From IMG/VR virus record IMGVR_UViG_3300035183_001077: a stretch of 64,000 nucleotides of DNA, one strand, 5' to 3'. The translations under genes and the position numbers were made by a program. Source of the stretch: an uncultured virus (IMG/VR IMGVR_UViG_3300035183_001077). Lineage: Duplodnaviria; Heunggongvirae; Uroviricota; Caudoviricetes. Below, in pieces: positions 8,914 to 42,757 of this stretch; position 1 is the stretch's first letter, and the number at the start of each line of letters is the position of its first letter. The notes below the pieces were generated by a model. The model made no database searches. It was not told the DNA's origin and saw only the letters and a list, made by a program, of their open reading frames with translations.

Positions 8914-9336
8914 ATGTCAGGAGGAAACCAGCCACGGGTACGTTCGTATGGGCATGTAAAGTGCAAAGAGCAGGACAACGGTTTATTAAATAAACTTAAA
9001 GCCAATTATTTCAGAGAATGGTTTGATGATTGGTGTCGTAACAATAGAAACCCATCAAGACGTAAACCCGAATTAGATCCTGATCCTCTGATTACCTGGA
9101 TTGAAGAATTGTGCCCGGATCATTATGTAAGCGAATTTGATGAAACGACTATTTTATTAAGAACAATCCGTGGCGGAATATATATGTCATTAAAAACTCC
9201 GCCGTGGATGGCTATGCTGAAATACTATGGGAAAAGGATTGGGAATAAGCTGGACGAATTAATAAATTTATACAAAAAGATTTTACCAGATTTGTGTGAG
9301 TTAGAAAAGAAGTTAGAGGAAGTAGTTAGTTGCTGA
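8914..9336 (+). CDS. Hypothetical protein
   Basis: 140-aa ORF with AAGGAG RBS. Confidence 0.7.
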   Translation: MSGGNQPRVRSYGHVKCKEQDNGLLNKLKANYFREWFDDWCRNNRNPSRRKPELDPDPLITWIEELCPDHYVSEFDETTILLRTIRGGIYMSLKTPPWMAMLKYYGKRIGNKLDELINLYKKILPDLCELEKKLEEVVSC

Positions 9337-9387
9337 GGTTTATATTTGTTTTACGTTTAATTTTTTAAAAATTAGGAAAATAATTTG

Positions 9388-9628
9388 TTGCCATGAAACT
9401 CTACTTCCTCTGGGGGGCCCGGGCTATCGGAGTCCGGTAGCCCCCCGCTGCAGCAGCAGACGTCATGGCGAGCTCCCCCGGTCAGGTTTTTCCGGCTTTT
9501 TGTCCTGGCCGGGGGAGTAGTTAAAAGAAAAGCCGGCGCCGCACGGCCTGTGCCCTGGGGGGTCGTGCGGTGGTGGGAGCCCGGGCAGACCCGTGTCCTC
9601 TAGCAATAGAGGGCACGGGGTTTTATTT
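9388..9628 (+). ncRNA. Structured GC-rich ncRNA with two pseudoknots and a terminal terminator
   Basis: Stems 9388-9396/9463-9471, 9473-9486/9504-9517 (loop 9492-9500 pairs with 9528-9536) and 9537-9548/9561-9572 (loop pairs with 9580-9587); G:U pairs only on + strand. Confidence 0.7.
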
Positions 9629-9632
9629 TTTT
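9590..9632 (+). terminator. Intrinsic terminator
   Basis: 13-bp stem with GCAA tetraloop followed by a T-rich tract. Confidence 0.8.
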
Positions 9633-9697
9633 AAATTTTGCAAAGAAAAGTTAAATTATTTTCCTAATTATTAAAAAAATTAGAAAAATAATTTAGT

Positions 9698-9892
9698 ATG
9701 GAACTCACTCCCAAAATCCGGGAGGAGGAGGTTGCCCTCCTCGTCATCCCGACCCGCTTGGAGTGGGTTACCTTGGATCCCGCGAGCGTTTCGTGCCCCG
9801 CTTGCGGGTATCCTCTGGCAGCCCGTCTCACCGACGAGGACTGGGACGGGGTCTGCCCGGACTGCAAGGCTAACTTGACAGAGATCATGTAA
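9698..9892 (+). CDS. Small zinc-ribbon protein, probably leaderless
   Basis: CPAC...CPDC; no RBS; ATG sits 6 nt after an AATAAT motif. Confidence 0.6.
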   Translation: MELTPKIREEEVALLVIPTRLEWVTLDPASVSCPACGYPLAARLTDEDWDGVCPDCKANLTEIM

Positions 9893-10612
9893 CAGGATCT
9901 CTGCAGGTGGTCTTGCAGCCGCCGATGCCGGTAAAGGCTTTCGGTAAAGGCAAGGATGCCTGAACCGAGGGCTGAAGCCGGATAAGGCGGGGGCCCACCC
10001 GGCAGCTGTCCCCTGGGTATGGCTGCCGGGAGTTCGCACAAATCCCAGGGCGGTCGGGGGAGGCCGGTTTCCGGTTCCGGCCTGTGAACCCGGCTGAAGG
10101 GCACGGCCACGCCCTTGCTGCACGGTAGCGGCCCCGGTTGGGTGGGCAGAGGCCGTGTCGAGTAAGCTGCAACCGGGCCCCACGGTGAGCCGACATAGCC
10201 GTGGGGAAACGGGTGTCGGCCCAGAGGCAGGATTGTGGGGTTTCCGCCTTAGCCCCACAGCCCTGGGTTAAAGATGGGCACAAAAAAAGGCGGCGCCTCC
10301 TGTCCCGTAGAGGCCGGGCACGGGCAGGAGGACGACTGGAAAACCCCATCCGGCCTGCCGACCCAGGGGAGGCTGGACGCCTCTTGGGTTACGGGGTCAG
10401 AGGCAGGCCACCGCGGTAGTTTGCCGCGGTCCCGGCTCCGCGCTGGGGCGGCAGCGCGGATAAATGACAGGCCGCCCTGGAGGCCTCTAACATGGAAGTG
10501 TCATAGAGGTACCTCCAGGGCCTGCGGAGACAGCCCCCGCAGGAAGGCCTGTCTAACCCGCCATCCCCCCGTCGTGAGACGCGGGGATGTGAGTCCATAG
10601 CTAGGACTCACC
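9893..10612 (+). ncRNA. Large (~700 nt) GC-rich structured RNA with tandem H-type pseudoknots
   Basis: At least four hairpins whose loops have 7-nt perfect complements just downstream; G:U pairs favour + strand; no credible ORF. Confidence 0.7.
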
Positions 10613-10674
10613 GCAATGTTTTTTAAATATTCAATCTCATTTAATTTATACATTTTACCACAAATAATTTCCTG

Positions 10675-10706
10675 TTCCTGCTGGAGCTGAGAAGCTCCGG
10701 CGGGAA
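10675..10706 (+). other. 14-bp hairpin with GAGA (GNRA) tetraloop
   Basis: TTCCTGCTGGAGCT-GAGA-AGCTCCGGCGGGAA, directly after an AAATAATT motif. Confidence 0.6.
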
Positions 10707-10760
10707 AACACTTCTTATATTTTTTTACTTTTGCCACACCTAGAACACCAAAGATCTGAC

Positions 10761-10789
10761 TTGACAACTGGCTGCCAGGTGAGTATAAT
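10761..10789 (+). promoter_or_regulatory. Consensus sigma70 promoter for the array/effector locus
   Basis: TTGACA (10761-10766), 17-nt spacer, TATAAT (10784-10789). Confidence 0.85.
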
Positions 10790-10820
10790 ACCATCCCATC
10801 ACCGATAAAAGACAACGGTA

Positions 10821-11550
10821 GGGAAGGCATAAGATAGACGCTACTAATAATAGTGGAATAAAAGGCAGAAGATAGACTTATACAAGGAAGGAGATAGACC
10901 GTCGTAGAGATGGATATAATTCTAACATTAGTAAGGATAGTGAAATAAGAGGCAGAAGATAGACTAACAAATAGACGATTCTCACGTCCAAAAATTTAAA
11001 GGAAATAACTAAATGGACTGGCCTGACCTCCATACAAACTGGCGCTGTCTATCCGCCAGGGGCTGCGACTCTCGTGTATGTATCTGCATTGGGAGCAGAT
11101 ACTTACGAAGGAGCGGCTCGAATGGCTGTAAAGTCTCTGCCTTCAGGTCAGTGCCAGTCCATATAATAAAAACAATGGCAGAGGGTAGACGATTAGGGAT
11201 TACGTAGTAAGATACTACAGGAAAGACGTAAGTGTAAAGAAGGCAGAAGATAGACAATGCACAAAAGGAGACACTATAAAAGTGAATGTAAAGAAGGCAG
11301 AGGATAGACAGTGTGTCAAAAAGTATTATAAAAAGTAAGTATAAAGAAGGCAGGAGATAGACTATAATCTCAAAGGTAAAGAAGGCAGAGGATAGACGGC
11401 AACCCTGCTGTCGGTAGAAGAGGGCAGAAGATAGACAGATGATTAGAAAGAAGGCAGATGATAGACAGAACACAACAAATGAATATAAAGAAGGCAGAAG
11501 ATAGACGGACGTGATAAACAATAAGTAAAAAAAGAAGGCAGAAGATAGAC
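10821..11550 (+). CRISPR. Atypical CRISPR-like array: 13 copies of a 19-nt repeat with irregular spacers, interrupted by a tracr-like RNA
   Basis: Consensus AAGAAGGCAGAAGATAGAC; copies end at 10839, 10877, 10899, 10964, 11190, 11255, 11309, 11362, 11397, 11436, 11466, 11506 and 11550; spacers are unique. Confidence 0.75.
11013..11162 (+). ncRNA. tracrRNA/scaffold-like RNA with split anti-repeat
   Basis: Closing stem 11013-11029/11145-11162; hairpin loop GTCTATC (11047-11053) complements repeat 3' GATAGAC; CTCTGCCTTC (11135-11144) complements repeat GAAGGCAGAG. Confidence 0.75.
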
Positions 11551-11588
11551 GGGAAGTGATCAGAAAGCAGACGGGAGGTAAGGCGCCT

Positions 11589-12881
11589 ATGGCAGATCAG
11601 CTTCTGACAGTCAGATTTCGTGTTCCCAAAACAACCAGGTGGCAACAAGCCGCTTTGGAAAAATTTGGGAACATTTATGCTCAAACTGTTGTTAATCTGT
11701 GTCGTTGGGCACAAGACGGTTTTGATTTTAATGAGATGAGTGATCCAATTGATACTTATAGAATAGCAAAACTTTTGCCTTCATGTGAGGAAGTATACGC
11801 TGATTCAAGATTGTTGCACAGTTCGTTGAAAGCGAGTTTAGTCCTCGATGCTGCTTCTAAAATAGCTGCTTACGCTAAATTATGCAAGTTATATAAAGAA
11901 GGAAAGTTAAAATACCGTCCAAAATTCTGGGCAACGGGAAGGAGAGTTCCTTCAAAGTCTTATGAAGAGTTACTTGACGATGCTAAGTATAAAATTTTTG
12001 AAACTAATCGAGAATTTCTTGAATGGCAAAGTGATTTGATGACGTATTACCGTCCGTCTCAGGAAAAGAGACCACCACTTGGTGAATGCTTATTTTTTGC
12101 CGGTGCATCAGGTCAGAGGTTTTGCCATATTATTGCTAAAAGACACAACGGTGAACTTCAGGCCGCTGCTGTTTTGTTTATTGCAGCTAAAAATACACTT
12201 CCTGGATTGACTATAGGTCGTAGCGATGGGTGGATTGATTTGACTACAGGTAAACCTTATTACATTTCTACTAAGACAGCCATTATGTTGCCTTTACTTG
12301 TACGAACAGAATATATTAAAAATTTCATAGGAATGGCTCTGGAAGGGAAAGCCAGGCCTGCTGCTTCAAAATTATTCCGCCGTCGCCGCCATGAAAAGGA
12401 GAAATGGACATGGTACGTATCTACTACATTTAGAGTGAATTGCCCGAAACCCTATGAAACCAGCACTTATATCGAAGTCGAAGCACAATATAAAGAAGAT
12501 AAGGCTCCGTCAGTAATTGTAAAACTACCTGACAAAGAAATTGAGGTATTTTCCAACGTATATGATAATCATTTGAATGCTGTAACTCAACAGCAGCATG
12601 AACGTATCCGTCAGTATCAGAAAAAATTTAGATTTAGAAATGTTACTGGAATACACAAGGAAGGTGCTGTTTGGAAAATGCATTTACATATGGCAGCTAA
12701 TTCTATAATTGATATCGCCAGAACTAACAATTATGGTATTACCTGGGTTGGTGGTGCTCCACACAGGCTTAAACGTCTACCTCACTTTATCATGCAGAAA
12801 GCTCGTCTATCTGGAGTACCGACAAAATGGGTGAAAAAGATGAAAAAATCTGGTACGGAGCAGCATGAAGAAAAAACATAA
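11589..12881 (+). CDS. Nuclease-dead TnpB/Cas12-like RNA-guided DNA-binding protein (430 aa)
   Basis: TnpB-like N terminus (TVRFRV...QQAALE..Y), WYVSTTF...P.PY, H..ANSII..A and FIMQKARLSGVPTKWV motifs; RuvC-I/II degenerate; no Zn finger or RuvC-III; GGAGGT RBS before ATG 11589. Confidence 0.7.
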   Translation: MADQLLTVRFRVPKTTRWQQAALEKFGNIYAQTVVNLCRWAQDGFDFNEMSDPIDTYRIAKLLPSCEEVYADSRLLHSSLKASLVLDAASKIAAYAKLCKLYKEGKLKYRPKFWATGRRVPSKSYEELLDDAKYKIFETNREFLEWQSDLMTYYRPSQEKRPPLGECLFFAGASGQRFCHIIAKRHNGELQAAAVLFIAAKNTLPGLTIGRSDGWIDLTTGKPYYISTKTAIMLPLLVRTEYIKNFIGMALEGKARPAASKLFRRRRHEKEKWTWYVSTTFRVNCPKPYETSTYIEVEAQYKEDKAPSVIVKLPDKEIEVFSNVYDNHLNAVTQQQHERIRQYQKKFRFRNVTGIHKEGAVWKMHLHMAANSIIDIARTNNYGITWVGGAPHRLKRLPHFIMQKARLSGVPTKWVKKMKKSGTEQHEEKT

Positions 12882-13923
12882 CCGTGTTCAACCACCAAGA
12901 CTAGAACTCGATTTCGATTATTTCAGCAGGGAATTGTATTTTTCTTCACGCAGAAATACGGTATTTTTTATTAACTATAAGTTTGATCGCGTTTTTACGT
13001 TTGACTTACAAACATTTCAGCAGAATGGTCAAACAGCTATTCCAAAATTGGAAAATAAAAGAATACTTCACGTTCTTCCAATACCTCAGACAGGTGATTT
13101 TCTGGGAATATGGGGAAGTTATCAGAGTTACGATTTAGGCATTTTTACTGATATGGGAATTATTAAGCTCTACCAGCGGTTACCTTTTCTAGTTAAAGCT
13201 CCCTATTTTGCCTTTGAACTGATCGAAATAGTAACAGGTAATGATAAGATTATATTAATGGACTATAATAAATCGTCAATAATCGTTTTGCACATAGAAC
13301 CTGATACAAAAAACTATGACTTACAAATAATAAAAGCAGCACTGCCGGATCTTGTGTTATGTGATAGGCTGGTAGCAAATCGTTATATTCTCTGTTCCCC
13401 TGATGGAGATTACAATGTATGTTTATTTGATTTAAATACGTTGGAATATTCGGATCCAATAACTATTTACAGTGGATGCAGGAAATTTTATTATAGCCCG
13501 AAATATGATCGCTTACTAATTTCGTGCTATGGTACTTTGATGGAATTTCGTAACGCATCTGCTCATGGTGCGAATTATCAGCTGGCTTACTGTCGACAAT
13601 ATGCTCAGGGTGCTCAGGGGAGGATAGCTGAAATTCTTGCCTGTAAAGACGATGCTATTGACTGTTTGTGTATTACAGATCGCAACAAGAGGTTCAAATT
13701 AGTAAGATTGTGGCCTTACAGATTGTGGTCATGTTATGGAGAATTCAGTTGCTATCACAAAGGTATTGACTGGTGCGCTTTGGATTTAGATGGTGATGAG
13801 AAATATTTGTTTACTAAAATTCGTCGCAACCGTAATAACACCCGTTCTTACATAATACACTACTCAGAGCTGGAGGAGGTAAGCTATGCAAGCGACAGTA
13901 ACCCAGATCAATCAAACCAATGA
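12865..13923 (+). CDS. Hypothetical protein, beta-propeller-like pattern
   Basis: 352-aa ORF overlapping the effector stop; repeated short beta strands. Confidence 0.65.
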   Translation: MKKKHNRVQPPRLELDFDYFSRELYFSSRRNTVFFINYKFDRVFTFDLQTFQQNGQTAIPKLENKRILHVLPIPQTGDFLGIWGSYQSYDLGIFTDMGIIKLYQRLPFLVKAPYFAFELIEIVTGNDKIILMDYNKSSIIVLHIEPDTKNYDLQIIKAALPDLVLCDRLVANRYILCSPDGDYNVCLFDLNTLEYSDPITIYSGCRKFYYSPKYDRLLISCYGTLMEFRNASAHGANYQLAYCRQYAQGAQGRIAEILACKDDAIDCLCITDRNKRFKLVRLWPYRLWSCYGEFSCYHKGIDWCALDLDGDEKYLFTKIRRNRNNTRSYIIHYSELEEVSYASDSNPDQSNQ

Positions 13924-14788: not shown

Positions 14789-16156
14789 ATGACCGACCTA
14801 CCACTCATCAAGGTATCCCTTGATGAATTAAAAGTTATAAAGAAATATGAAGATTATAACGTGGGAACAAGTTCAGAAATTGTTAAAAATAACTACTTAT
14901 ATAGCGCTGGTTTGTTTGGCAATACTCACTCAGGTGCTAGTGAGCTTAGTATCTCAAAATATGACTTATCTACAAGAATGATAATCGCTATAATAACTTT
15001 TGATCTTGCACAAATATGTCCTAAACTGGCTTCCGTACTTTCCCACATACCAGGTTCGTTATACATAAAGTGGTTAGCTCCAGTCGACGGTGATGAGTTA
15101 TGGCTGATAGCAATTAGTACGGAAGTATTGTCCAATATCTTGTATACAACAAGTATTATAAAATTAAAAGCATCAGACCTTTCCATAATTGATATTTCAG
15201 AACGACAAATTGATGCCACGCCAGATAGGAACAATTTTGTTGCCATGACGTTTGGAAAAGCCAAATTAAAGCCGAAAAGTTGGTTTCATGGTATTCAATT
15301 AGAAATGAAACATATGAAATTTTGCCCATGCTACGATAGGTTAAGGACTACTTTCAATGTTCGTATTACAAATGGTCGCAGATACGTTGGTGGATTTGAT
15401 GAAGGATTGGATACTCCGGTATGGTTTGCCATAAGCTGCTGTAAGTATTATGACACATGCCTGTATGCTAGTATGGAGAATAGTAATTGTTATTTTGGCT
15501 GGGGAAAGAAGTGGTCTAGAGGCGGTACTAATATAGATAGATTATATACCGTCAAATTTAATGAAAACTTCTCCGTAGTTGAATTAAAACATGTTGACAT
15601 AGATGGTAAAATTATTAATGCATACCCTATATGGGATGTAAACTATTCTTTTTCCCATAACACTTTGATTTGTGTTAAAATGTACATTCCCAGATCTGGT
15701 ATAGAAATACTGGTCTTCGATGATGACGGTACTTTCGTTTATCAAATACCGATAAAGTTTATTATTGGTACGGACCATACTGGTACGTTCACTTGTATCT
15801 TTTCCGATGATCCAGTTAATAATTTTATATACTTCACTTGTTATAAAGAATATATATCACATGCTGTTTTAGGATATATAAGTTTTGACCACGATAGCAA
15901 AACAATTACAGTTCATGTTACCAATCCAATAAATACTGGTTATAACGAGTCAGATTATTTGGAGTGGGTCGATACTTACATACATCCTGAATATCTTTGC
16001 CTTACAGGCAAGTTCACTTATAAATCGCTTGACATACTGCTATTTCCCGTACAATGGTTGCACGATAATGTAATTAAAAGCGAAACTTTTGCAGCAGAAA
16101 GGTATGAATTTGATAAAAAGGAAATATATGAAGTACAGAAGAGCTGTGTATGCTGA
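14789..16156 (+). CDS. Tandem paralogue family member 1
   Basis: Shares SKYDL, MTFGKAKLKP, GRxYVGGF, PVWFAIxCC, LGYIxFDHD and FPVQWLHDN blocks with its neighbours. Confidence 0.85.
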   Translation: MTDLPLIKVSLDELKVIKKYEDYNVGTSSEIVKNNYLYSAGLFGNTHSGASELSISKYDLSTRMIIAIITFDLAQICPKLASVLSHIPGSLYIKWLAPVDGDELWLIAISTEVLSNILYTTSIIKLKASDLSIIDISERQIDATPDRNNFVAMTFGKAKLKPKSWFHGIQLEMKHMKFCPCYDRLRTTFNVRITNGRRYVGGFDEGLDTPVWFAISCCKYYDTCLYASMENSNCYFGWGKKWSRGGTNIDRLYTVKFNENFSVVELKHVDIDGKIINAYPIWDVNYSFSHNTLICVKMYIPRSGIEILVFDDDGTFVYQIPIKFIIGTDHTGTFTCIFSDDPVNNFIYFTCYKEYISHAVLGYISFDHDSKTITVHVTNPINTGYNESDYLEWVDTYIHPEYLCLTGKFTYKSLDILLFPVQWLHDNVIKSETFAAERYEFDKKEIYEVQKSCVC

Positions 16157-16177
16157 GAAATGAAACAAGGATAAACT

Positions 16178-17584
16178 ATGACGGATATACCTACTATCAG
16201 TATATCCCTCGGTGAATTAGGAATGGAAAGAGATTATCGCATCTACAATAAATGGCTCGGATCGTCAGAAATTATTGAAGGTAATTATTTATATGGTGCT
16301 GTTTTGTTCTATGATACGAACACTGGGAAAGGCAAATTTGTTATTTCAAAGTACGATTTATTTACAAAACTATTGGTGGCTATAAACGATTTTGATCCTG
16401 CACAAATATTTCCTAAATTAATGTTTGCTGCAGGTTGTGTCATACCAAGACTATTAACTCTAAATTGGCTTGTTTCAACTGATGACGAGTTAAGATTGAT
16501 AATATCAGCTGCATATACAACTTCATATGTAACAAACAACATTTTATGTATAAGTAGTGTTATAAGATTAAAAGCGTCAGACCTTTCCGTGATCGATGCT
16601 TCGGAACGGCAAATTGATATTACACCAAGCAATGGGAAATTCATTAACATGACTCTTGGCAAGACTAGATTAAAACCGGCAAGCTGGTTTAAAGATATTC
16701 GCCTGACAGTCGATAACATCGAATTATATCCGTGTCCTGATCAATTAAAAGCTACTTTCAACCTTACAACACTAAAAGGTCGCACGTTCGTTGGTGGGTA
16801 TAATGAGGAATTAAATGGTACGCCAGTATGGTTTGTTACCGATTGTTGCAACTATTATAGAGCGTGCGCGTATTTATATGCGAGCCCGGAGCTTAAGGGG
16901 TATTACTTTGGTTACAGAAGGGAACAACATAAGGACAGTGGTACAATCAGATTATATACCGTTGAATTTGATAAAGACTCCTCTACAGCCGGATTAAAAT
17001 ATATCGACATTGTTGATACTAGTATTCACTTAGACAGCAACTGGAATAGAAATTATCCACTTATAGATTGCAACAGCATGATTTTCGTAGGAAAATTTTC
17101 TTTCCAAGAATTGATAATACTAACCTTTTTTGATAAAGGTACAATAGTTTATAAAATACCAATAAAATACATTATTGGTGCCGAGACTGATCCTATTACT
17201 GCTTGGCATATCGACCGAATTACCTGGAATTTTTATTATGATTCGTTCAACTATTATATATATTTTGTGTGTTACGACGCTGAAGAATCCTTTGCTGTTT
17301 TAGGGTACATAAAACTTGATCATGACAGCAAAACGGCTAAGGTTTACATTACTAATAAGATAAATACCGGGCAATATAGGCCAGGCCATCAGAAGTTGCT
17401 CGACACATACATATGCCCAGAGTATCTTTATCTTACTCACAGTTATGCCCATAACAATTCGCTTATCTTAACGTTATTTCCTGTACAATGGTTGCACGAT
17501 AATATAGTTAGGAGTGAAACTTTCACAGCAGAAAAATATGAATTTGATAAAAAGAAAACGTATGAAGTGCTGAGGACCGAATGA
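16178..17584 (+). CDS. Tandem paralogue family member 2
   Basis: Same conserved blocks. Confidence 0.85.
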   Translation: MTDIPTISISLGELGMERDYRIYNKWLGSSEIIEGNYLYGAVLFYDTNTGKGKFVISKYDLFTKLLVAINDFDPAQIFPKLMFAAGCVIPRLLTLNWLVSTDDELRLIISAAYTTSYVTNNILCISSVIRLKASDLSVIDASERQIDITPSNGKFINMTLGKTRLKPASWFKDIRLTVDNIELYPCPDQLKATFNLTTLKGRTFVGGYNEELNGTPVWFVTDCCNYYRACAYLYASPELKGYYFGYRREQHKDSGTIRLYTVEFDKDSSTAGLKYIDIVDTSIHLDSNWNRNYPLIDCNSMIFVGKFSFQELIILTFFDKGTIVYKIPIKYIIGAETDPITAWHIDRITWNFYYDSFNYYIYFVCYDAEESFAVLGYIKLDHDSKTAKVYITNKINTGQYRPGHQKLLDTYICPEYLYLTHSYAHNNSLILTLFPVQWLHDNIVRSETFTAEKYEFDKKKTYEVLRTE

Positions 17585-18982
17585 ATGACAGATATAAGCC
17601 CGCCAAAAGTCATTGTATCTCTTGATGAATTGGGAATGGTAAAAAGTTACAGAGATGACAGTATGTTGGACGGGTCAAAAATTGTCAAAGGCAATTACTT
17701 ATATAGTGCCCATCTGTGCTATAACGAGAATACTGATAAAGTAGAGCTTGTTGTTTCAAAATACGATTTATCAGTAAAATTGCTGGTGTCTCTTGCAGTC
17801 ATTGATCTTACACAAAAATATGAATCATTACTTAAATGTTATGAACTAGGCGTAGTGAATGTAAAGTGGCTTACTCCAAGTCCTAATGATAGATTAGAGC
17901 TGATTATTACTTTTGCACGTAGAGGACAAATGTCAAATCCAACGTGTAATTTGTTGTGTGTAACAAAAATTGTAAAATTAAAAGAATCAGATTTTTCTGT
18001 GATTGATATATTAGAACGCCAGATTGATGTTGTACCGAATAAAGGAACGTTCATTAGCATGACCTTTGGTAAGGCCAAGTTAAAACCGGAAAATTGGTTT
18101 ACAGCTATTAGGCTCGCGCCAAGCGATCTGGTGGTGCATCCATCTCTTGACCAATTCCGAGCCACCTTCAATGTTAGAATGTCAAATGGTCGTACATATG
18201 TGGGCGGATTCAATGAAGGAGTTGGTAATCCAGTATGGTTTGCCATAAGTTGTTGTAATTACTTCGACACACGCTTATATGCAAATCTAACGTGCAATAA
18301 CCATTATTTTGGTTGGGGAATGAAGCATTATAAAGGTAACAATATAGGCAGATTGTACGCCGTTGATTTTGGTGAAAGTTTTTCTACTGTTGAATTGAAA
18401 TATACTGATACACGTGATAATAGTGATTTTATACCTTCTAGGTGGCTCAGATGTACGAATTACTCACTTTCATGTCGTCGCAGTATTGTTTGTGAAGAAG
18501 CATGTCCCATTAGCAAACCTACAACAATAATGGTTTTTTCCGACAAAGATGTAGCTGTTTATAAAATACCAACCAAAGATATTGCCGGTGATAATCATGC
18601 TAAAAGTATTTTGTGGAATTTTTACCATGATCCGTCCAACGATTTTATATACTTTGTTTGTTATGAATTCAGTGGACCAAACGCGGTTTTAGGGTATATA
18701 AATTTCGATCATGACAATAAAACAGCTAATGTTTATTATACCAATTTAATAGAAGCAAATGTTAATTATAGTAGTAGGCTAGGATATAAGGCTGTGGTTA
18801 ACAGATACATGTGCCCAGAATATATTTATTTGACAAACGATTTCATACAAGATTCGCGTTGCATAATATTGTTTCCCGTACAATGGTTATATGATAATAT
18901 AGCTGAAAGTAAAACTATTGCAGCAGAAGTATATGAATTCGATAAAAAAGAAGTATATAAAGCTCAGGAAATCCGTGCATAA
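17585..18982 (+). CDS. Tandem paralogue family member 3
   Basis: Same conserved blocks. Confidence 0.85.
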   Translation: MTDISPPKVIVSLDELGMVKSYRDDSMLDGSKIVKGNYLYSAHLCYNENTDKVELVVSKYDLSVKLLVSLAVIDLTQKYESLLKCYELGVVNVKWLTPSPNDRLELIITFARRGQMSNPTCNLLCVTKIVKLKESDFSVIDILERQIDVVPNKGTFISMTFGKAKLKPENWFTAIRLAPSDLVVHPSLDQFRATFNVRMSNGRTYVGGFNEGVGNPVWFAISCCNYFDTRLYANLTCNNHYFGWGMKHYKGNNIGRLYAVDFGESFSTVELKYTDTRDNSDFIPSRWLRCTNYSLSCRRSIVCEEACPISKPTTIMVFSDKDVAVYKIPTKDIAGDNHAKSILWNFYHDPSNDFIYFVCYEFSGPNAVLGYINFDHDNKTANVYYTNLIEANVNYSSRLGYKAVVNRYMCPEYIYLTNDFIQDSRCIILFPVQWLYDNIAESKTIAAEVYEFDKKEVYKAQEIRA

Positions 18983-18984
18983 GC

Positions 18985-20385
18985 ATGAGCAGCAGCAAAA
19001 CTATAACAGATCTACCGCTTGTAGAAGTATCTCTCGATGAATTAGGAGTAATGAAAAGTTGTGATGATTGTAATCGTAAAGAAGAATCAAGAATTATCAA
19101 AGGCAATTATGTATATAACGCTAGTTTTATTTATAATAACAAACATGGTGAGAGTGAGATCATTGTTTCAAAATACGACTTATCAATGAAATTGTTGTTA
19201 GCTGTTACGACTGTTAACCTTACACAAGTATTTGCTAGATTACTGTGCTGTAATGTCCTGTATACGTACCGTCTGGACTGGCTAGTTCCAGATACTGACA
19301 ATGAGTTGTGGCTGATAATACGCGTTCTAGATTATAAAGAACATTTACTTTCGGGCGCAATAAGCATTGTAAAACTAAAAGCATCAGACCTTTCCATAAT
19401 AGACATTTCAGAAAAGCAGGTTGATATTTCTCCAAACAGGGGAAATTTTGTTCCTATGACGTTCGGTAAAGCCAAATTAAAGCCAGAAAAGTGGTTCGAT
19501 AAGATTAAATTGTCATCGAGATATATGATACTGTACCCGTGTCATGATCAATTAATAGCTGTTTTTGATGTTAAGCTTTCAAATGGTCGCACATACGTTG
19601 GCGGTTTTAATGAGGGATCTGGTACTCCAGTATGGTTTGCTATTAATTGCTGTAATTATTTCGATACGTATATACATGCCAGTACGAAGCATAATAATTA
19701 TTATTTTGGCTGGGGAGGGGAAAAACGGTATGGAAGTAATGATACAGTCAGATTATACGCTGTTGAATTTAATGAAGAATTTTCCACAGCAGAATTAAAA
19801 TACCTTGATGCTGGTGATGATCTCACTATTGTCTTATCTCCTTATTGGCAGCGCGATGCTTATGTATTTACGCAGTGTAATAGCTTGATTTACGCTCAAT
19901 CACGTTTCGGTAGAGAGGGAATCGACGTAGTCATGATAACTTTTTGTGATAAAGATATAGTTGCTTATAAAATAACAGTAAAACGTGATATTGTTGATTT
20001 TGATAACAATAATCGAATTTATTGGAATTTTTATCATGATCCGTTTAAAGATTTTATATATTTTATATGTTGTGATCGCCTCGGCGGTTCAGGTATCGTT
20101 TTAGGATATATAAGCTTCGACCACGACAATAAAACGGTTACATTCCATACTACCAATACAATGTATACCAATAGTTCTGCACCCGATTACAGTGGACGGA
20201 TCAGAGCTTTTATGCACCCTGAGTATCTTTATTTCAGATCAGATCTCAAACAAGGTTCATATAATATAGCATTACTTCCTGCACAGTGGCTGCATGATAA
20301 TATAATTAAAAGTACAACAGTTACGGCGGAAAAATATGGATTCGATAAAAAGGAAACATATGAAGCTCAGGAAATCCGTGCATAA
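18985..20385 (+). CDS. Tandem paralogue family member 4
   Basis: Same conserved blocks; highly similar to member 5 at DNA level. Confidence 0.85.
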   Translation: MSSSKTITDLPLVEVSLDELGVMKSCDDCNRKEESRIIKGNYVYNASFIYNNKHGESEIIVSKYDLSMKLLLAVTTVNLTQVFARLLCCNVLYTYRLDWLVPDTDNELWLIIRVLDYKEHLLSGAISIVKLKASDLSIIDISEKQVDISPNRGNFVPMTFGKAKLKPEKWFDKIKLSSRYMILYPCHDQLIAVFDVKLSNGRTYVGGFNEGSGTPVWFAINCCNYFDTYIHASTKHNNYYFGWGGEKRYGSNDTVRLYAVEFNEEFSTAELKYLDAGDDLTIVLSPYWQRDAYVFTQCNSLIYAQSRFGREGIDVVMITFCDKDIVAYKITVKRDIVDFDNNNRIYWNFYHDPFKDFIYFICCDRLGGSGIVLGYISFDHDNKTVTFHTTNTMYTNSSAPDYSGRIRAFMHPEYLYFRSDLKQGSYNIALLPAQWLHDNIIKSTTVTAEKYGFDKKETYEAQEIRA

Positions 20386-20387
20386 GC

Positions 20388-21800
20388 ATGAGCAGCAGCA
20401 AAACTATGACAGATCTACCGCTTGTAGAAGTATCTCTCGATGAATCAGGAGTAGTGAAAGATCGTGATGGTTATTATAATTATCAGAACGAATCGAGAAT
20501 TATCAAAGGCAATTACTTATATAGCGCCAGTTTTGCTTATGATAACAAACATGGTGAGAGTGAGATCATTGTTTCAAAATACGACTTATCAATGAAATTG
20601 TTGTTAGCTGTTACAACCGTTAACCTTACACAAGTATTTGCTAGATTACTGTGCTGTGAGGTTCTGTATTCATACCATCTGAGCTGGTTGGTTCCAGATA
20701 ACAGTGATGAGTTGTGGTTGACAGCACGCATTCTAAATTACAAAACAGATTTAATTTCTGGTGTAGCGATCATCGTAAAATTAAAAGAGTCAGACCTTTC
20801 CGTAATCGACATTCCAGAAAAGCAGGTTGATATTTCTCCAAATAAGGGAAATTTCGTTCCTATGACGTTCGGTAAAGCCAAATTAGAGCCGGAAAAGTGG
20901 TTCGATAAGATTAAATTATCATTGCTAAATATGAGGCTGTACCCGTGGCATGATCAGTTGATAGCTGTTTTTGACGCTAAGCTTCTAAATGGCCGCGTAT
21001 ACGTTGGCGGTTTTAATGATGGATCTGGTACTCCAGTCTGGTTTGCTATTAACTGCTGTAATTATTTCGATATGTATATCCATGCCAGTACGAAAAATAA
21101 TAATTATTATTTTGGCTGGGGAGGAGAAAAGCTGTATGAAAGTAATGATACAGTCAGGTTATACGCTGTTGAATTTAACGAAAACTTTTCCACAGCAGAA
21201 TTAAAATATCTTGATGCTGGTGATGATCTCACTGTTGCCATATCTCCTCAATGGATACGCAGTAATCATGTACTTCCGCAATGCAATAGTTTAATTTGCA
21301 CTCGATCACGTTTTGGTAAAGAAAACGACGCAGTTATGATAACTTTTTGTGATAAAGATATAGTTGCTTATAAAATAAAAATGGAACGTGATATTGTTGA
21401 TTTCGTTAACGGTAATGAAGTTGGTTGGAATTTTTATCATGATCCATTTAAAGGTTTTATATATTTCATATGTCGTGAGTATATCAGCGGTTATCGTTAC
21501 AATAAAGGTGGAAAAAAGCCAGGTTTCGTTTTAGGATATATAAGCTTCGACCACGACAATAAAACGGTTACATTCCATACTACCAATACAATGTATACCG
21601 GTAGTTCTGGACCCGGTTACAATATATTGATTGAATCTTTCATGCATCCTGAGTACCTTTATTTCAGATCAGATCACAAACAAGGTTCACTTAATATAGC
21701 ATTGTTTCCTACACAATGGCTGCATGATAACATAGTTAAAAGTACAACAGTTACGGCGGAAAGATATGAATTCGATAAAAAAAAAAGGTGTATGAAATAA
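20388..21800 (+). CDS. Tandem paralogue family member 5
   Basis: Same conserved blocks. Confidence 0.85.
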   Translation: MSSSKTMTDLPLVEVSLDESGVVKDRDGYYNYQNESRIIKGNYLYSASFAYDNKHGESEIIVSKYDLSMKLLLAVTTVNLTQVFARLLCCEVLYSYHLSWLVPDNSDELWLTARILNYKTDLISGVAIIVKLKESDLSVIDIPEKQVDISPNKGNFVPMTFGKAKLEPEKWFDKIKLSLLNMRLYPWHDQLIAVFDAKLLNGRVYVGGFNDGSGTPVWFAINCCNYFDMYIHASTKNNNYYFGWGGEKLYESNDTVRLYAVEFNENFSTAELKYLDAGDDLTVAISPQWIRSNHVLPQCNSLICTRSRFGKENDAVMITFCDKDIVAYKIKMERDIVDFVNGNEVGWNFYHDPFKGFIYFICREYISGYRYNKGGKKPGFVLGYISFDHDNKTVTFHTTNTMYTGSSGPGYNILIESFMHPEYLYFRSDHKQGSLNIALFPTQWLHDNIVKSTTVTAERYEFDKKKRCMK

Positions 21801-21810
21801 AAGGAACTGC

Positions 21811-23247
21811 ATGACAAAAATAAAAAAGCAGGTAAACTCTGATAATCTTATCAGAATCAATTTTAATGCTGACGCCTATTTTCTTAAACAAGGGTTGAAG
21901 TCTAAATTTACAGAATATTGTATCAATGATAACTACATATACGGTGCTTCCCTAATAGTTGACTCTCAAAAGTCAAAAACGTGTTTTTTGATTTCCAAAT
22001 TTGATATACAATTAGGACTGATTGTTGGGGTAAATGAAATAGATCTTATAACCATTGTTCCGGCTTCTAAAGACATGGTTGATCGTATACTTGCCAGCCA
22101 CACTATCTACGATTTCTATTTGAAGGATGACCACTTAATAATTGATATGCTTTTTGTTTTACCAGAAAATATTTTCAACAGGTATATGTTATCAATTGAT
22201 GTAAACACATTACAACTGGTATCGGTTGATCGCGGGCGTGGAAATCTTGCCGAATGCAATCGTGCAGTCTTACGGTTTACTAGACTTAAAGATAATAAAC
22301 TTAAGATAATTGACGAAACTAAACAAACCAGTTTTGATATATTCAAGAGTATTACCACAGAACAGATTGGCAAACGTTTTATATGGATAAATACGGGTGG
22401 TATTCAAGTGTTCACTAGTGGATATGCAGACAAGCATTATCAATACCTTTATAAGAAAGATCCTGATAACAACAATTATTGCTGGGAACATAATCAGATT
22501 TCATTTATCAGCCATCGGCGTCCATTATTTATTGTACCAGCACAGCTCAATCATGCTGGTATAGGTAAAGCTGAAATTATATATTGCGATCACGATCTTG
22601 GCTGTATGACATTATTCAGGCAGCATGAAAGTATACGTGGAGAAGTATTTTATATTGAGCAAACTCCTGATTTGACGAACGAAATTAAGAAAATGAGCGA
22701 TTATTATTATTCGGCAAGATGTAATATTAAATACTGCTGTGATCACATGGAAAACGAATTTATGTTGTATGGTCAACATGTCTTAAAACATGTTGGACAT
22801 CGCGGCGAGTTGCTCATATATTCATTTGATGCTATTACAGCTGCAAATGATGTATTTCATATTTCGCACGAAGATGAAGACGGTACAATTTATATGTATT
22901 ACGTTTGTAAGTTTGATGGAGGCCGTTCCTATTATATAGGTATACCAGCATTCCTAAAAATCAGGGATTTAAATATAGCATGTTATAAAACTGATTTCTG
23001 CTACTACGTTTGTGATCGCATTAAGACCCCTTACGGCTTATATCACTACCCTATACCTTATGCAAATTGCGATAAGTATAGCAAAAATCTTGTATGTGTG
23101 ATTTATGATAGATCGAGCGATTACCATTTTACTGCCATATCCAAGGAAGAAGTTGAGAAGAGAGTAGTGGAAGTACAGGAACTAAAACCAGTATGTTTTT
23201 CCTGGAAATATTATGGTGATATAAAGATGGAGAAAGTACAGTGTTAG
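21811..23247 (+). CDS. Divergent member of the paralogue family
   Basis: NYIYGASL...FLISKFDI..GLIVGVNEIDL matches the family N-terminal block. Confidence 0.7.
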   Translation: MTKIKKQVNSDNLIRINFNADAYFLKQGLKSKFTEYCINDNYIYGASLIVDSQKSKTCFLISKFDIQLGLIVGVNEIDLITIVPASKDMVDRILASHTIYDFYLKDDHLIIDMLFVLPENIFNRYMLSIDVNTLQLVSVDRGRGNLAECNRAVLRFTRLKDNKLKIIDETKQTSFDIFKSITTEQIGKRFIWINTGGIQVFTSGYADKHYQYLYKKDPDNNNYCWEHNQISFISHRRPLFIVPAQLNHAGIGKAEIIYCDHDLGCMTLFRQHESIRGEVFYIEQTPDLTNEIKKMSDYYYSARCNIKYCCDHMENEFMLYGQHVLKHVGHRGELLIYSFDAITAANDVFHISHEDEDGTIYMYYVCKFDGGRSYYIGIPAFLKIRDLNIACYKTDFCYYVCDRIKTPYGLYHYPIPYANCDKYSKNLVCVIYDRSSDYHFTAISKEEVEKRVVEVQELKPVCFSWKYYGDIKMEKVQC

Positions 23248-28800: not shown

Positions 28801-30708
28801 ATACGTGCAGCCATAATTAACCATATAAAACGGAAACGTTATAAGAACTGGAATAGCCTCACCCCACGTCTTAGGCGGACTAAGTTCGTGGTGTACTTCT
28901 AATAACATTTCGCTGTATAGTTTAGGGTCGTATCTACCAGTAACCAACGGATCGTATTTGATAACATCTCCAAATAGATGATAAATGTTCAATCCTATAG
29001 CAAATAGAGCTGTATGTACTGGATCAACTATACCCGACAACCCAAGAACTGTTCTAAAAGCATATCCAGCAGCTGCTCTTCCTGCATATCGTATGGCAGA
29101 TTCTGTACCTGCACGTACTATTAAACTTTGCATTCTGTTTTCCATTGCCTGGAAAGCACGTATTCTAAACAACTCAGCAGTCATGTTTCTACCGCCGAAA
29201 TATACAGTTTTAATCATATCAGCTGGTAAAGAACCTACAGTGAAACCGATTATCGTATTTGTAGCGGCACCTAAAGCTTTGGCAAAATTACCTTCCGGAT
29301 GATAATACGCCCTGAGGAATTCGCTAGTAGCAAAATATATAGTAAGAGGATCTAATGCTGAGTGAATAAAATGTCTGGCTAACCAACCACTACCAGTAGC
29401 AAGTTGCCCTGCAAAAGTTTTTGGTTGCGCTGCACGCTCTAAAACTTTTTGCTGCAACTGCGTAAATAATACTGGATTTTCTCTACGAATATCATCTCCA
29501 AATATATGTGCAAAGTCTTTAGGATCAAGTCCTTCAATCTGTGTAATTAGCAAATCAAGATGTCCAAGCACTCTGGCATCTTTAGCATCTTTTACATTTA
29601 ACCATTTTTGTTGAGCTCTTAAAGTATGCACAACCTCTCTTTGTATACTAGACCAGTCGGCCTTATCAACATCAATTTTTCCTAATGTGGCTTTTATAAT
29701 TTGATCTGTTCCAAGCACAGTTCTGCCGGAACTGGTTGGTAATCTAGCTAATTCTATCAAATTGGCTTTGATTGTGTTATTAACCTGCTTTTGACGGGTA
29801 GTTGTAATATTCATCACCAAATCTGCTGGTAATTCATTAATAGCCTCTCTTACTCGTTCAACAGCAGCGCGTCTCGGACCGCTGATAGGCCTATTAATGT
29901 AATCATCAACAACTTTAATAACTTCTCGCTTGTAACTTTCTGCATCTTTACCTGTTTTATCTATACCGTTTATCTTATCAAATATCCTTTTCTCTAAAAC
30001 AGGGTCTGTCCTAAATAGTTGGTTCCACGAATCAAAAAATCCGGATACAGCGACCACACGCTCACCAAAGTGTCTTATAAAAGTATGCTCAACTGGCTCA
30101 GCGACATACTTCCTGATAAGCCAACCAGATCCGATAGCAGAACCTGTTATACCCAAAACATTAAACAAACCAGCAACCTCCAATGGATTTCTAAACCATT
30201 TTTCCCAGTAATCATCAGAAGCAAGAGGTCTAGGTAATTCCACATGTCTGATATTAGCAGGTTTTCTTTGATCGCCAGGCGGTGGCCTCCGAACATCGCC
30301 TGCGAGCATTCGCCCTGCTTCATCACGTTCCTTACGTCCGCGTTCAATAGGTTTTGGTAGTTCCAATTCACCCGCCATTGCTCGTTCTCTTTGTCCAGCA
30401 CCACCATGTTCAGCACCACCGGCAGGTGCAGCAGGTCCAGCCTTTTCTCCTTGATCACCTTCACCAGATGGTACACCACCAATTCCTTTGAAACCACCTG
30501 CTGGAAATCCGCCAAAACCTTCTCCTCCATAAGATCTACTGTACCACGGACTACCCATATTACCAAGACCCGACCAAAATGGATTCAATAATAATTGCGG
30601 TATTTGGGGAAGGGAAATACCTATATTATCACCAAGCGGCAGCCGTGAACCAAACAGACTGTTGAGATTAATTAATTGTAAAGCTGGATTTATGTTAAAT
30701 GGCGTCAT
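25810..30708 (-). CDS. Very large helical protein, probable internal virion/ejection protein
   Basis: 1632-aa ORF; Gly-rich N terminus, hydrophobic helices, long charged helical region. Confidence 0.6.
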   Translation of the reverse strand: MTPFNINPALQLINLNSLFGSRLPLGDNIGISLPQIPQLLLNPFWSGLGNMGSPWYSRSYGGEGFGGFPAGGFKGIGGVPSGEGDQGEKAGPAAPAGGAEHGGAGQRERAMAGELELPKPIERGRKERDEAGRMLAGDVRRPPPGDQRKPANIRHVELPRPLASDDYWEKWFRNPLEVAGLFNVLGITGSAIGSGWLIRKYVAEPVEHTFIRHFGERVVAVSGFFDSWNQLFRTDPVLEKRIFDKINGIDKTGKDAESYKREVIKVVDDYINRPISGPRRAAVERVREAINELPADLVMNITTTRQKQVNNTIKANLIELARLPTSSGRTVLGTDQIIKATLGKIDVDKADWSSIQREVVHTLRAQQKWLNVKDAKDARVLGHLDLLITQIEGLDPKDFAHIFGDDIRRENPVLFTQLQQKVLERAAQPKTFAGQLATGSGWLARHFIHSALDPLTIYFATSEFLRAYYHPEGNFAKALGAATNTIIGFTVGSLPADMIKTVYFGGRNMTAELFRIRAFQAMENRMQSLIVRAGTESAIRYAGRAAAGYAFRTVLGLSGIVDPVHTALFAIGLNIYHLFGDVIKYDPLVTGRYDPKLYSEMLLEVHHELSPPKTWGEAIPVLITFPFYMVNYGCTYVRKGNLKEEAERFHHLLENVPKAHIEALVNLHTGNNALPILFIGLRDAANREKNRFLDEILFTAMGRQIQRNQLIGLAGLALAPNNPIGSAMMLSVAQSDFTEPMRALQNVGVLDLYRNFNAHPSVVGRTGNIVLNVAEQFGRYGILEKTAAELMTANYGRNPQLALLEYAELLRLKQTFYVLGIQAISSASDGSGYRLFKASFGDQLKEVDQRLNELRSMFMQRHGIDLSKPDSVERLADLAVTLVPENHRGEVKEKLNNNLKSVFSELILLDNRLQEINLDKLVYRTDKFKDQAKNFIEHVEEIGKYLTGYNEGGRRIRGLGEIENTDVLKTILDALPKNDKYQKAVVDHINKLHTSLAIDDANIDTYGRVLSTVKRTAVLKELGINAVNRELKNNDVVELLKLGINQERLAAYVFSASNARQAWERLTEISSVFDLLSISQEEYNKSRDIYIEAHNTMVTFAKELQDKQKKGQRITEAEQQKLKDLVSLTEAAAGDLGKKHQLIEHFDYLVSGETNVSHFINEINRLNIPLAQKYQEIYNSKQEKLAGLTNNQFEEEYDKALLLLYSTRSRLFRSGLPEEGWHVRGDNGENEHLQVLEKLKNVNDKNKEETINDAVHFLLDKYNGIYNIAPDERTELNGNVVLRGRKNNIIASAREQVERLEKVIDSKRYPPQSPFFGFGTLQYRDVPDYRAWHYSINRLLDRNNEYGLHGYIEYLNQLPDDAVVRGGHAIPNLLTARVLSQYAQTISGTGYAFDLRAEAAFATLPPQFKPDYQIGAFREKWKAAGNAMNAVRAALEDVRSLDTATAKRLTGLLGSDIERILYTARSLEEQHRKITYEIEDTANKIESASATRELKKKLKDFDENYGRIVRKDIGEFLTEVISAAHHDKITGTPRQLAETVFRDKEGKQEKTFYEIINEAKAFVEQSRNVKDLETAKKVHDDFYRFLVRINQLQSEDANANKLKRMFSDYLTDELRVLSRRKESMRRQNQWYP

Positions 30709-41950: not shown

Positions 41951-42757
41951 ATGCCAGAAAAAAGCATCAGAGTGAATAGTTTTGTATCGAATCTCATTAA
42001 AAATATTAAATTGGCCGCCACCGAGCCGCCAAATTACCGTCCCGCAGAAAACCCAGGCGTCAAATGTGGTACTTGTAAGCATTATGACAATGCTACTACT
42101 CTATGCACCAAATATGATACTGGTGTAAATGAAGGTTATGTTTGTGATGCGTTTGAACGTAAAAAAGTTAAATTAAGAGCTGTTACTGAAAGTAATGTAG
42201 AAAAACCTGACCTGTTATCTAAAGTAAGTGCAGTTTTATCTCAAGCTCAAGCAGGAATGATGCCGCCTCCTCCACCTGGTGGCGGTATGCCGCCAGGCGG
42301 TGCTCCGCCAATGGATCCCATGATGATGGCAGCTATGGGTGGCGGTGGAATGCCTCCTCCTGGTGGTGGAGGAATGCCCCCGCCTCCTCCAGGTGGAGGT
42401 TCTCCGTTAGACATGGCTTTAGCTGCACCTCCGCCGCCTGGCGGTGGTGGTGATATGGGTATGGGTGGTGGTATGCCTCCACCACCTTCTTCTACAGAAG
42501 AGCCTGGAAAAGAAGAAAAACCCAAGGAAGAAGAAAAATCAGAAAAGTCAACCGACGAAAAATTAGATGAATTGATTTCAAAACTTGACAGATTAATTGA
42601 ACTATTAGAAAAGAAAATGGCAGTTGATGAAAAAGGACCTGCCTCTACAGTTACTGAAGAAAAAACAGAAACTTCTCATGAACCAGTTGTTAAAGAAAAA
42701 ACTTCCAGTGCAAGCGATGATGTATTGAATCAAATTTTACAATTACTGAACGACTAG
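41951..42757 (+). CDS. Protein with a 4-Cys (HiPIP-like) domain, poly-Pro/Gly/Met linker and acidic coiled coil
   Basis: CGTCKHY...C...VCD; MPPPPPGGG repeats; start reassigned to ATG 41951. Confidence 0.65.
   Translation: MPEKSIRVNSFVSNLIKNIKLAATEPPNYRPAENPGVKCGTCKHYDNATTLCTKYDTGVNEGYVCDAFERKKVKLRAVTESNVEKPDLLSKVSAVLSQAQAGMMPPPPPGGGMPPGGAPPMDPMMMAAMGGGGMPPPGGGGMPPPPPGGGSPLDMALAAPPPPGGGGDMGMGGGMPPPPSSTEEPGKEEKPKEEEKSEKSTDEKLDELISKLDRLIELLEKKMAVDEKGPASTVTEEKTETSHEPVVKEKTSSASDDVLNQILQLLND

Follow-up and report, generated by a model that had tools for sequence, protein, structure and literature searches.

A truncated Cas12f-like protein lacking the catalytic triad, with an adjoining CRISPR array and a candidate tracrRNA, in an uncultured phage

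Introduction

Truncated, naturally nuclease-dead relatives of the miniature CRISPR (short palindromic repeats that are clustered and regularly interspaced) effector Cas12f, known as dCas12f, have already been published (Al-Shayeb et al. 2020; Hoffmann et al. 2026), and the protein considered here, P0001, adds to this known kind; it is encoded by an open reading frame (ORF) of 430 amino acids (aa) in a 64,000-nucleotide (nt) stretch of DNA from an uncultured virus of the Caudoviricetes (IMG/VR record IMGVR_UViG_3300035183_001077), called the window below. Hoffmann, Wiegand et al. (Nature 2026, PMC13472631) describe dCas12f proteins whose C-terminal truncations remove part of the RuvC site, most of them linked to rpoE and using single guides, together with a separate cluster that lies beside CRISPR arrays and is predicted to repress (their Extended Data Fig. 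1a,b). Natural dead, truncated Cas12f has so far been studied as a chromosomal transcription activator of Bacteroidota, the silencer role of the array-linked forms being only predicted, and the phage "dCas14" in print amounts to a single remark: Al-Shayeb et al. (Nature 2020, PMC7162821) mention a huge-phage protein without one catalytic residue, proposed to repress instead of cutting, with a spacer to the host glycyl-tRNA synthetase gene. Altae-Tran et al. (PMC10691335) have proposed that Cas12f lost RuvC-III, that its array shrank to a half repeat beside the trans-activating CRISPR RNA (tracrRNA), and that the two then fused. Finally, the Cas12r of Thermus Lalka phages (10.64898/2026.04.20.719267) is a protein of 564 aa that needs an active RuvC (D238A loses interference), is independent of tracrRNA, and has spacers that target other mobile elements.

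The P0001 locus compares with these systems as follows: i) with the array-associated dCas12f cluster it shares a Cas12f-like fold, RuvC mutations, C-terminal truncation, adjoining arrays, and a covarying structured RNA (here too a dead Cas12f, a CRISPR array, and a conserved intergenic RNA stand together, and for the cluster repression is predicted), but that cluster is described from bacterial genomes and metagenome-assembled genomes with targets at efflux-pump promoters whereas P0001 is phage-borne, the two being likened by description (PMC13472631); ii) with the Fta dCas12f-sigma-E of Bacteroidota (9n9c and 9n9m) it shares a truncated, dead Cas12f fold (Z 17.1, root-mean-square deviation 5.0 over 303 residues) in which the beta4-beta5 lid is kept, but the Fta system has an operonic rpoE, a single chimeric guide RNA without tracrRNA, and a chromosomal location whereas P0001 has no adjacent rpoE, a predicted dual RNA with an array, and a phage as its carrier, and the P0001 family profile, searched at E up to 10, does not match the sequence of 9n9c; iii) type V-F Cas12f (AsCas12f 8j12, 7wju, and 8dzj; OsCas12f 9nzq; SpCas12f1 9i8y) is the best match in fold (Z 17-18) and in sequence (E 1e-9) and likewise has an array, a tracrRNA (a candidate here), and miniature size, but it possesses a D-E-D catalytic triad, a TNB zinc ribbon, and a RuvC-III helix, and P0001 lacks all three; iv) the phage dCas14, compared by description (PMC7162821), is also a phage-encoded Cas14/Cas12f-type effector deprived of catalytic residues, but it lacks one such residue whereas P0001 lacks all three as well as the C-terminal domain, and no target was found for the P0001 spacers; v) Cas12r resembles the P0001 locus as a type V system of thermophile phages with degenerate repeats and occasional very short spacers, and the accessible text of that report mentions no adaptation genes; and vi) the layout in the window, where a core-only half repeat beside the scaffold RNA is followed by short repeats, resembles the intermediate proposed between CRISPR-Cas12f and single-guide dCas12f (PMC10691335).

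Two further groups, Cas12m (type V-M) and TldR, are RNA-guided binders that silence without cutting DNA. Cas12m is a protein of ~600 aa that works with CRISPR RNA (crRNA) only and has an altered but present RuvC and TNB; P0001, with 430 aa and no TNB, matches it less well in fold (Z 10.3). TldR is TnpB-derived, with a fixed guide; it is not known to have a CRISPR array, and its guide RNA overlaps its own gene. The P0001 locus instead has an array with variable spacers and a separate scaffold. Beyond the cases cited, no phage-borne, triad-less, TNB-less Cas12f with an array was found in the literature, supplements aside.

Results

The effector gene and the sites within it to which we refer are

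11573 to 11577, + strand: Shine-Dalgarno-like GGAGG, read from the sequence, 11 nt 5′ of the ATG of the effector gene
11589 to 12881, + strand: gene for P0001 (430 aa), Cas12f-like, C-terminally truncated and predicted to be nuclease-dead from alignment, residue counts, and fold
12480 to 12482, + strand: codon of Glu298
12747 to 12749, + strand: codon of Val387
12750 to 12821, + strand: codons of the lid-like segment, residues 388 to 411

A preliminary description made by eye from the letters of this DNA had proposed that 11589 to 12881 encodes a TnpB/Cas12-type effector which has lost RuvC catalysis and the whole zinc-finger/RuvC-III end, within an otherwise intact frame with a strong ribosome-binding site. 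The strings on which it relied are all present: YIEVEAQ forms residues 294-300 (the RuvC-I position); HMAANSIIDIA is followed by NNYGITWVGG, which includes GITWVG, at residues 380-389 (the RuvC-II position); and the TnpB-like segment, residues 400-415 or FIMQKARLSGVPTKWV, is followed by a 15-residue charged tail, KKMKKSGTEQHEEKT, and the stop codon at 12879-12881. The frame is indeed open over 430 aa behind its GGAGG, and the initiating Met is shared with the orthologues (MADQ or MPDQ). The by-eye register also holds when P0001 is aligned by MAFFT with two intact relatives, P0007 and P0010: YLGIDRG of the intact proteins faces YIEVEAQ, so the RuvC-I Asp is replaced by Glu298, and MIVLEDLN faces GITWVGGA, so the RuvC-II Glu is replaced by Val387. 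A second program, hhalign, instead sets a gap opposite the RuvC-II Glu, and either alignment leaves that place without an acidic residue. The third Asp of the Cas12f triad is truncated away, P0001 stopping where the intact relatives extend for ~90 more residues with a C..C/C..C pattern and SDxGAGVNIA.

The D-E-D residues are not found elsewhere in P0001 by the multiple alignment. Residues 376-423 contain no Asp or Glu, D375 is Ala in the homologue P0003, and among the three homologues P0001-P0003 no acidic residue is conserved after E319 up to the tail; further upstream, Glu296-Val297-Glu298 is identical in all three. Residues 380-430 contain no Cys and PF07282 is not matched, so the TNB zinc ribbon is missing as well. 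Alignment and residue counts thus agree with the preliminary description that both RuvC catalysis and the C-terminal end are gone.

A word-index search with P0001 found two homologues, P0002 (87% identity) and P0003 (50%), and an exhaustive HMMER search over 1.84 billion representatives yielded 8 proteins at E <= 0.001; a second word-index search added none, queries with P0005, P0007, and P0008 led to no viral loci, and a metagenome scan for relatives yielded a single fragment, of 1066 nt, from the P0003 clade. P0007 and P0010 (484 and 485 aa) match Pfam Cas12f1-like_TNB and RuvC_1 and retain YLGIDRG, MIVLEDL, two Cys pairs, and SDxGAGVNIA intact; P0005 has lost the acidic residues and kept the zinc ribbon; and in P0008 and P0009, also dead, the C-terminus is of another kind. 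When the profile of the three dead homologues P0001-P0003 (A1) was aligned by hhalign with that of the two intact relatives (A5), the probability was 99.1% and E 9.3e-19 over 371 columns, P0001 residues 5-411 facing residues 2-396 of 485, so that the homology runs the full length of P0001 and stops where P0001 stops. Neither P0001 alone nor profile A1 has a meaningful match in Pfam, PHROG, or PDB sequences; the profile of all eight sequences (A2) reaches AsCas12f at E 1e-9 and OsCas12f at 7e-8.

An AlphaFold2 model of P0001 built from the 8-sequence alignment (predicted local distance difference test 73, predicted template modelling score 0.60) shows the strand order of RNase H: beta1 at 294-300, beta2 at 308-312, beta3 at 317-319, two long helices, beta4 at 383-387, a helix, and beta5 at 412-418, where the chain ends, leaving out the zinc ribbon and RuvC-III including the RuvC-III helix. 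The top Foldseek matches of the model are all Cas12f (AsCas12f 8j12 at E 1.3e-10). VIA-align covers model residues 1-430, paired with AsCas12f residues 1 to ~380, and its first ten rows are tied at Z 16.9-18.1 and consist of SpCas12f1, AsCas12f, OsCas12f, and the natural dCas12f structures 9n9c (17.1) and 9n9m (16.9); Z falls to 12-15 for CasX, TnpB, and Cas12k and is lower still for Cas12m, at the value given above. As modelled, P0001 has the Cas12f fold from the N-terminal WED/REC region through the five-stranded RNase H core of RuvC, and hhalign, Foldseek, and VIA-align together narrow the preliminary TnpB/Cas12-type assignment to Cas12f-like.

Upstream of the gene lie the elements of a putative guide RNA system:

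10761 to 10789, + strand: sigma-70-type promoter, TTGACA-17-TATAAT, directly 5′ of the first repeat unit; agrees with the consensus at 12 of 12 positions and is a consensus match only
10826 to 10964, + strand: repeat block A, 4 units that contain the 14-nt core GGCAGAAGATAGAC and end at 10839, 10877, 10899, and 10964; by core match
11012 to 11165, + strand: tracrRNA-like scaffold RNA, from homology to contigs L001-L003, fold, and covariation
11177 to 11550, + strand: repeat block B, 9 units with irregular inter-unit spacers of ~10 to 34 nt; by core match

The core GGCAGAAGATAGAC occurs 13 times (<=2 mismatches) in 10826-11550, always on the + strand, where 0.2 copies are expected by chance. 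These degenerate units have canonical counterparts at the three viral loci that carry the 50% orthologue (L001-L003), in which CRISPR arrays of 33-34 units lie directly downstream of the gene. The repeat there is 30 nt long, GTCACAAGCGAACTATGGTGGGAGATAGAC, with a variable 5′ half and a constant 3′ half, the period is a regular 65-67 nt, the spacers are mostly 35-37 nt, and the repeat 3′ end GAGATAGAC is common to the window units and the L001-L003 arrays; an adjacent CRISPR array, as in Cas12f systems, is thus present in both lineages. The 19-nt repeat of the window itself has 0 matches in viral contigs. No Cas1, Cas2, or Cas4 was found among 38 scanned ORFs of L002, L003, and a further contig, L005 (12 + 26), the records being incomplete and one of them about half complete. 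As a separate observation, L005 carries at 16323-16488 (= G001 30022-30187) a second mini-array of 3 repeats of the same repeat family, ~24 kb from the main array.

The GC-rich scaffold element is homologous across lineages, standing amid the repeat units in the window and between gene and array, directly 3′ of the gene, in L001-L003. It comprises a closing helix, a hairpin whose loop, CTGTCTATC (11045-11053), is invariant, and further a long hairpin and the candidate anti-repeat AGTCTCTGCCTTCA (11132-11145). The window copy folds with a z-score of -7.58, and of the 41 pairs in the consensus of three sequences from two lineages, 11 are compensatory, both partners having changed. The stretch just 5′ of the 3′ strand of the closing helix complements each lineage's own repeat, and anti-repeat and repeat covary at the aligned place, with CTGCCTTC against GAAGGCAG in the window and ATCTCCCACC against GGTGGGAGAT in L002. 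The window duplex is predicted at -18.7 kcal/mol (z -2.5), and the duplexes overall have z of -2.5 to -2.9 relative to shuffles; L001-L003 also have a further anti-repeat, GTCTATCTTCCACC, within a terminator-like hairpin. In both lineages the order is scaffold, core-only half repeat, spacer: the first unit of block B is such a half repeat, 12 nt after the scaffold, and the L002 scaffold is followed by a unit of the same kind. When folded jointly, the scaffold and the half repeat after it showed no pairing in cis. A search with the conserved scaffold motif matched only the same three contigs, and Rfam has no family in 9000-11700.

The effector is under strong purifying selection. Between the L002 and L003 orthologues (the L001 gene is that of L003), 109 of 1299 positions differ (8.4%), of which 97 are synonymous and 12 non-synonymous by Nei-Gojobori, giving a non-synonymous divergence (dN) of 0.012, a synonymous divergence (dS) of 0.41, and dN/dS of ~0.03. 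In X5, a public hot-spring run, a contig covers 986 nt of the effector gene with 109 differences (89% identity); among the 36 listed differences 12 codons are changed, 11 of the 12 giving the P0002 residue, which indicates that a second lineage of the window's clade exists in nature. A rough estimate from the 41 amino-acid differences in the covered stretch puts dN/dS of X5 versus the window near 0.2. The scaffold is more conserved than the gene, being 97.5% identical in X5. The low dN/dS and the P0002-like variant bear out the preliminary claim that the gene is selected rather than decaying.

The spacers behave otherwise. Only 8, identical or near-identical and in the same order, are common to L002 and L003, and in run X3 array segments are replaced by other sequence while the gene piece is 96.6% identical. 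For the comparisons with X3 and X5, joints in metagenome contigs assigned at 80% likeness can be artefacts, and the X5 joints have short sides. L002 unit 5 and L003 unit 7 hold versions of one 36-nt spacer that differ at 5 positions, either acquired twice from variant targets or drifted.

The carriers of the module are unrelated. The window is part of a ~137 kb contig of an AT-rich phage (~35% GC), and L001-L003 and L005 are phages of 57% GC that carry HK97-type capsid, portal, protease, and terminase genes. By tblastn of 44 window ORFs against L001-L003 the effector alone matches, and, as it is the sole shared protein, the module has moved between unrelated phages. Runs with window DNA are labelled microbial mat, and runs with the relatives hot springs. 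What emerges is a compact, mobile module of promoter, array, tracrRNA-like RNA, and 430-aa protein, exchanged among unrelated hot-spring and mat phages, in which protein and scaffold are strongly conserved and spacers turn over fast.

Discussion

We consider it reasonably probable, from sequence comparison and modelling, that P0001 is a phage-borne, naturally nuclease-dead Cas12f-family effector serving as an RNA-guided DNA binder that acts by steric silencing. All of the cutting residues and the zinc-finger end have been lost, and yet the protein is selected together with a helper RNA and an array, which makes RNA-guided binding instead of cutting the most likely activity; truncated dCas12f is already known to bind DNA by RNA guidance (PMC13472631; 10.1101/2025.06.10.658880). 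In outline, a host-type sigma-70 promoter (10761-10789) would transcribe array, scaffold, and gene; the anti-repeat of the scaffold RNA (11012-11165) would pair with the conserved 3′ part of each repeat in the manner of a tracrRNA; the effector, probably as a Cas12f-like dimer, would load these dual guides and form R-loops on matching DNA without cutting it; and transcription or replication would be blocked sterically, in the manner of CRISPR interference (CRISPRi). Since the spacers change quickly while protein and scaffold are fixed, variable targets are likelier than one fixed regulatory site, and competing mobile elements or variable host loci would be candidates. If such a binding-only mechanism is true, the module would offer a natural CRISPRi tool that is small and probably thermostable, and would exemplify silencing of the phage-versus-phage or phage-versus-host kind.

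We wish to stress that several observations weigh against silencing by guided binding. First, none of the spacer searches led to a target: the first 14-20 nt of all 13 window spacers have no convincing target inside the window; the window array and the L002 array have no match among GenBank phages; the L003 array, compared with the L003 and L002 records, matched only arrays, including the second 3-repeat array; one window spacer and one degenerate L002/L003 spacer had 0 matches in genome contigs; and one shared spacer, searched against viral contigs, matched only the arrays themselves. Second, the window array is irregular, and some of its spacers, at 10-15 nt, are too short for a guide, so that part of the window array may be inert. 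Third, the scaffold covariation is drawn from two lineages only, and the scores of the anti-repeat duplex are modest; expression, processing, and the ends of crRNA and tracrRNA are predicted. Finally, a known truncated dCas12f docks a partner through its truncated RuvC (10.1101/2025.06.10.658880), which favours recruitment over silencing.

Such recruitment is the most serious of the alternatives, unlikely as we think it: the truncated RuvC and the conserved lid would dock a phage sigma factor or RNA polymerase, the downstream protein, or a host factor, and the outcome would be activation or the delivery of an enzyme. The lid-like segment 388-411 lies between beta4 and beta5, where Fta dCas12f has its "lid" (10.1101/2025.06.10.658880), and is the best-conserved part of the protein, 75% identical between P0001 and P0003 as compared with 49% overall. 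The phage, moreover, has genes for a multisubunit RNA polymerase of its own and for sigma-like proteins; these, together with the downstream ORF, are

12865 to 13923, + strand: ORF of 352 aa, beta-propeller-like, overlapping the effector gene by 17 nt; doubtful member of the system
38361 to 40304, − strand: 647-aa protein with Rpb1 domain 5 and an M23-like insertion
42743 to 48346, − strand: 1867-aa protein joining beta (Rpb2 domains) and beta′ (Rpb1 domain 2), with an intein splicing domain inside
61046 to 61861, − strand: 271-aa protein with no family match, adjoining the next
61889 to 62704, − strand: 271-aa protein with Sigma70 region 3 and a match to the PHROG sigma factor family

The sigma-like gene at 61889 to 62704, however, is 49 kb from the effector gene, and its product has region 3 and so does not belong to the ECF (sigma-E) type with which dCas12f is known to dock; the six ORFs surrounding the effector gene and the scanned ORFs of L002, L003, and L005 yielded no sigma domain. 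The preliminary description had suggested the overlapping downstream protein as a partner, and here it finds no support: the ORF has no homologue in L001-L003 and no Pfam or PHROG family, and its structural neighbours in the atlas are WD40- or YncE-like (TM ~0.6), giving it the look of a generic beta-propeller. The effector is the one gene common to the window and the orthologous modules, which leaves no conserved protein partner in view, and the fast spacer turnover suits interference better than a fixed activation programme. A more specific version, which we hold to be distinctly improbable, would have the truncated RuvC and lid bind the phage RNA polymerase, sigma-like factors, or the co-translated beta-propeller, with the fast-evolving array guiding transcription, or the recruitment of an enzyme, to the DNA of the host or of a rival; were it true, the module would be a programmable, virus-encoded take-over device rather than a passive CRISPRi block.

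Little credence can be given to residual or alternative catalysis, in which DNA would still be cut, or pre-crRNA processed, by Glu296 and Glu298 in concert with further residues or by a nuclease half that acts in trans. In its favour, Glu296-Val297-Glu298 is invariant in the three homologues, and some TnpB clades have RuvC sites that are rearranged yet active (PMC10691335); against it, no acidic residue is conserved after E319 up to the tail, and the RuvC-III helix is missing. As for a half in trans, the only nearby zinc-ribbon ORF (9698 to 9892) has no Cas12f TNB match, the downstream ORF is a beta-propeller, and in L001-L003 it is the scaffold RNA that directly follows the gene.

Less credible still is a guide-independent use of the repeats as iteron- or operator-like DNA sites, bound by the effector or another factor near a replication origin, from an array that makes no guides. 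The window units are short and irregularly spaced, and the region is near a switch in the strand of gene orientation and the cumulative GC skew minimum, much as this explanation would have it; yet the canonical 30-nt CRISPR repeats at orthologous loci, whose period is a regular 65-67 nt, have the 3′ end of these units, 13 of 13 units lie in one orientation behind a promoter, and the scaffold RNA bears a covarying anti-repeat, all of which sits better with guided binding. Least credible of all is that a phage Cas12f system, once active, is decaying here without function, an idea suggested by the loss of triad and C-terminus and by the degenerate window array and already contradicted by the selection data (dN/dS of ~0.03, an intact ORF in three lineages at 50-87% identity, a scaffold RNA more conserved than the gene, and orthologues that retain arrays of 33-34 units).

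Other features of the window and related loci

Elsewhere in the window the phage encodes a DnaB-like helicase and a dCTP deaminase. After the effector operon, 14789 to 23247 (+ strand) holds five tandem paralogues of 455-470 aa, 41-77% identical, and a distant sixth (21811 to 23247), with no known domain. Helix-turn-helix proteins have been reported beside dCas12f in the literature, and in L002 (5637 to 6347) and L003 (1767 to 2477) a + strand ORF of 236 aa whose helix-turn-helix matches are weak overlaps the beginning of the orthologous effector gene, and the window lacks a counterpart.

Upstream of the array, two structured stretches of high GC content (60-65%) stand out in this 35%-GC phage, at 9393-9632 and ~9690-10630 (+ strand). 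The stretch 9393-9632 folds with a z-score of -6.7, and 9893-10630 with one of -12.3. A scan placed a terminator at the end of the first stretch (9590-9619), and the second ends in a hairpin and T-run read by eye. At the 5′ end of the second lies a 64-aa ORF (9698 to 9892, + strand) with two CxxC pairs and weak Pfam zinc-ribbon matches, which may be a real gene or an open frame within a GC-rich RNA; a split gene supplying the missing end of P0001 was considered and rejected, this ORF having no Cas12f TNB match and the ORF downstream of the effector being propeller-like. Within the same stretch ARAGORN calls a 94-nt "tRNA-Arg(acg)" at 10359-10452 (+ strand), for which the Rfam tRNA model gives no call at gathering score, and which may be a false call or may reflect a tRNA-like fold. 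An AT-rich repeat, TTAG(G/A)AAAATAATTT, precedes each GC-rich stretch, and a third copy precedes the array. The two stretches are probably large phage non-coding RNAs, and GC-rich RNA islands of this kind would fit a thermophilic host.

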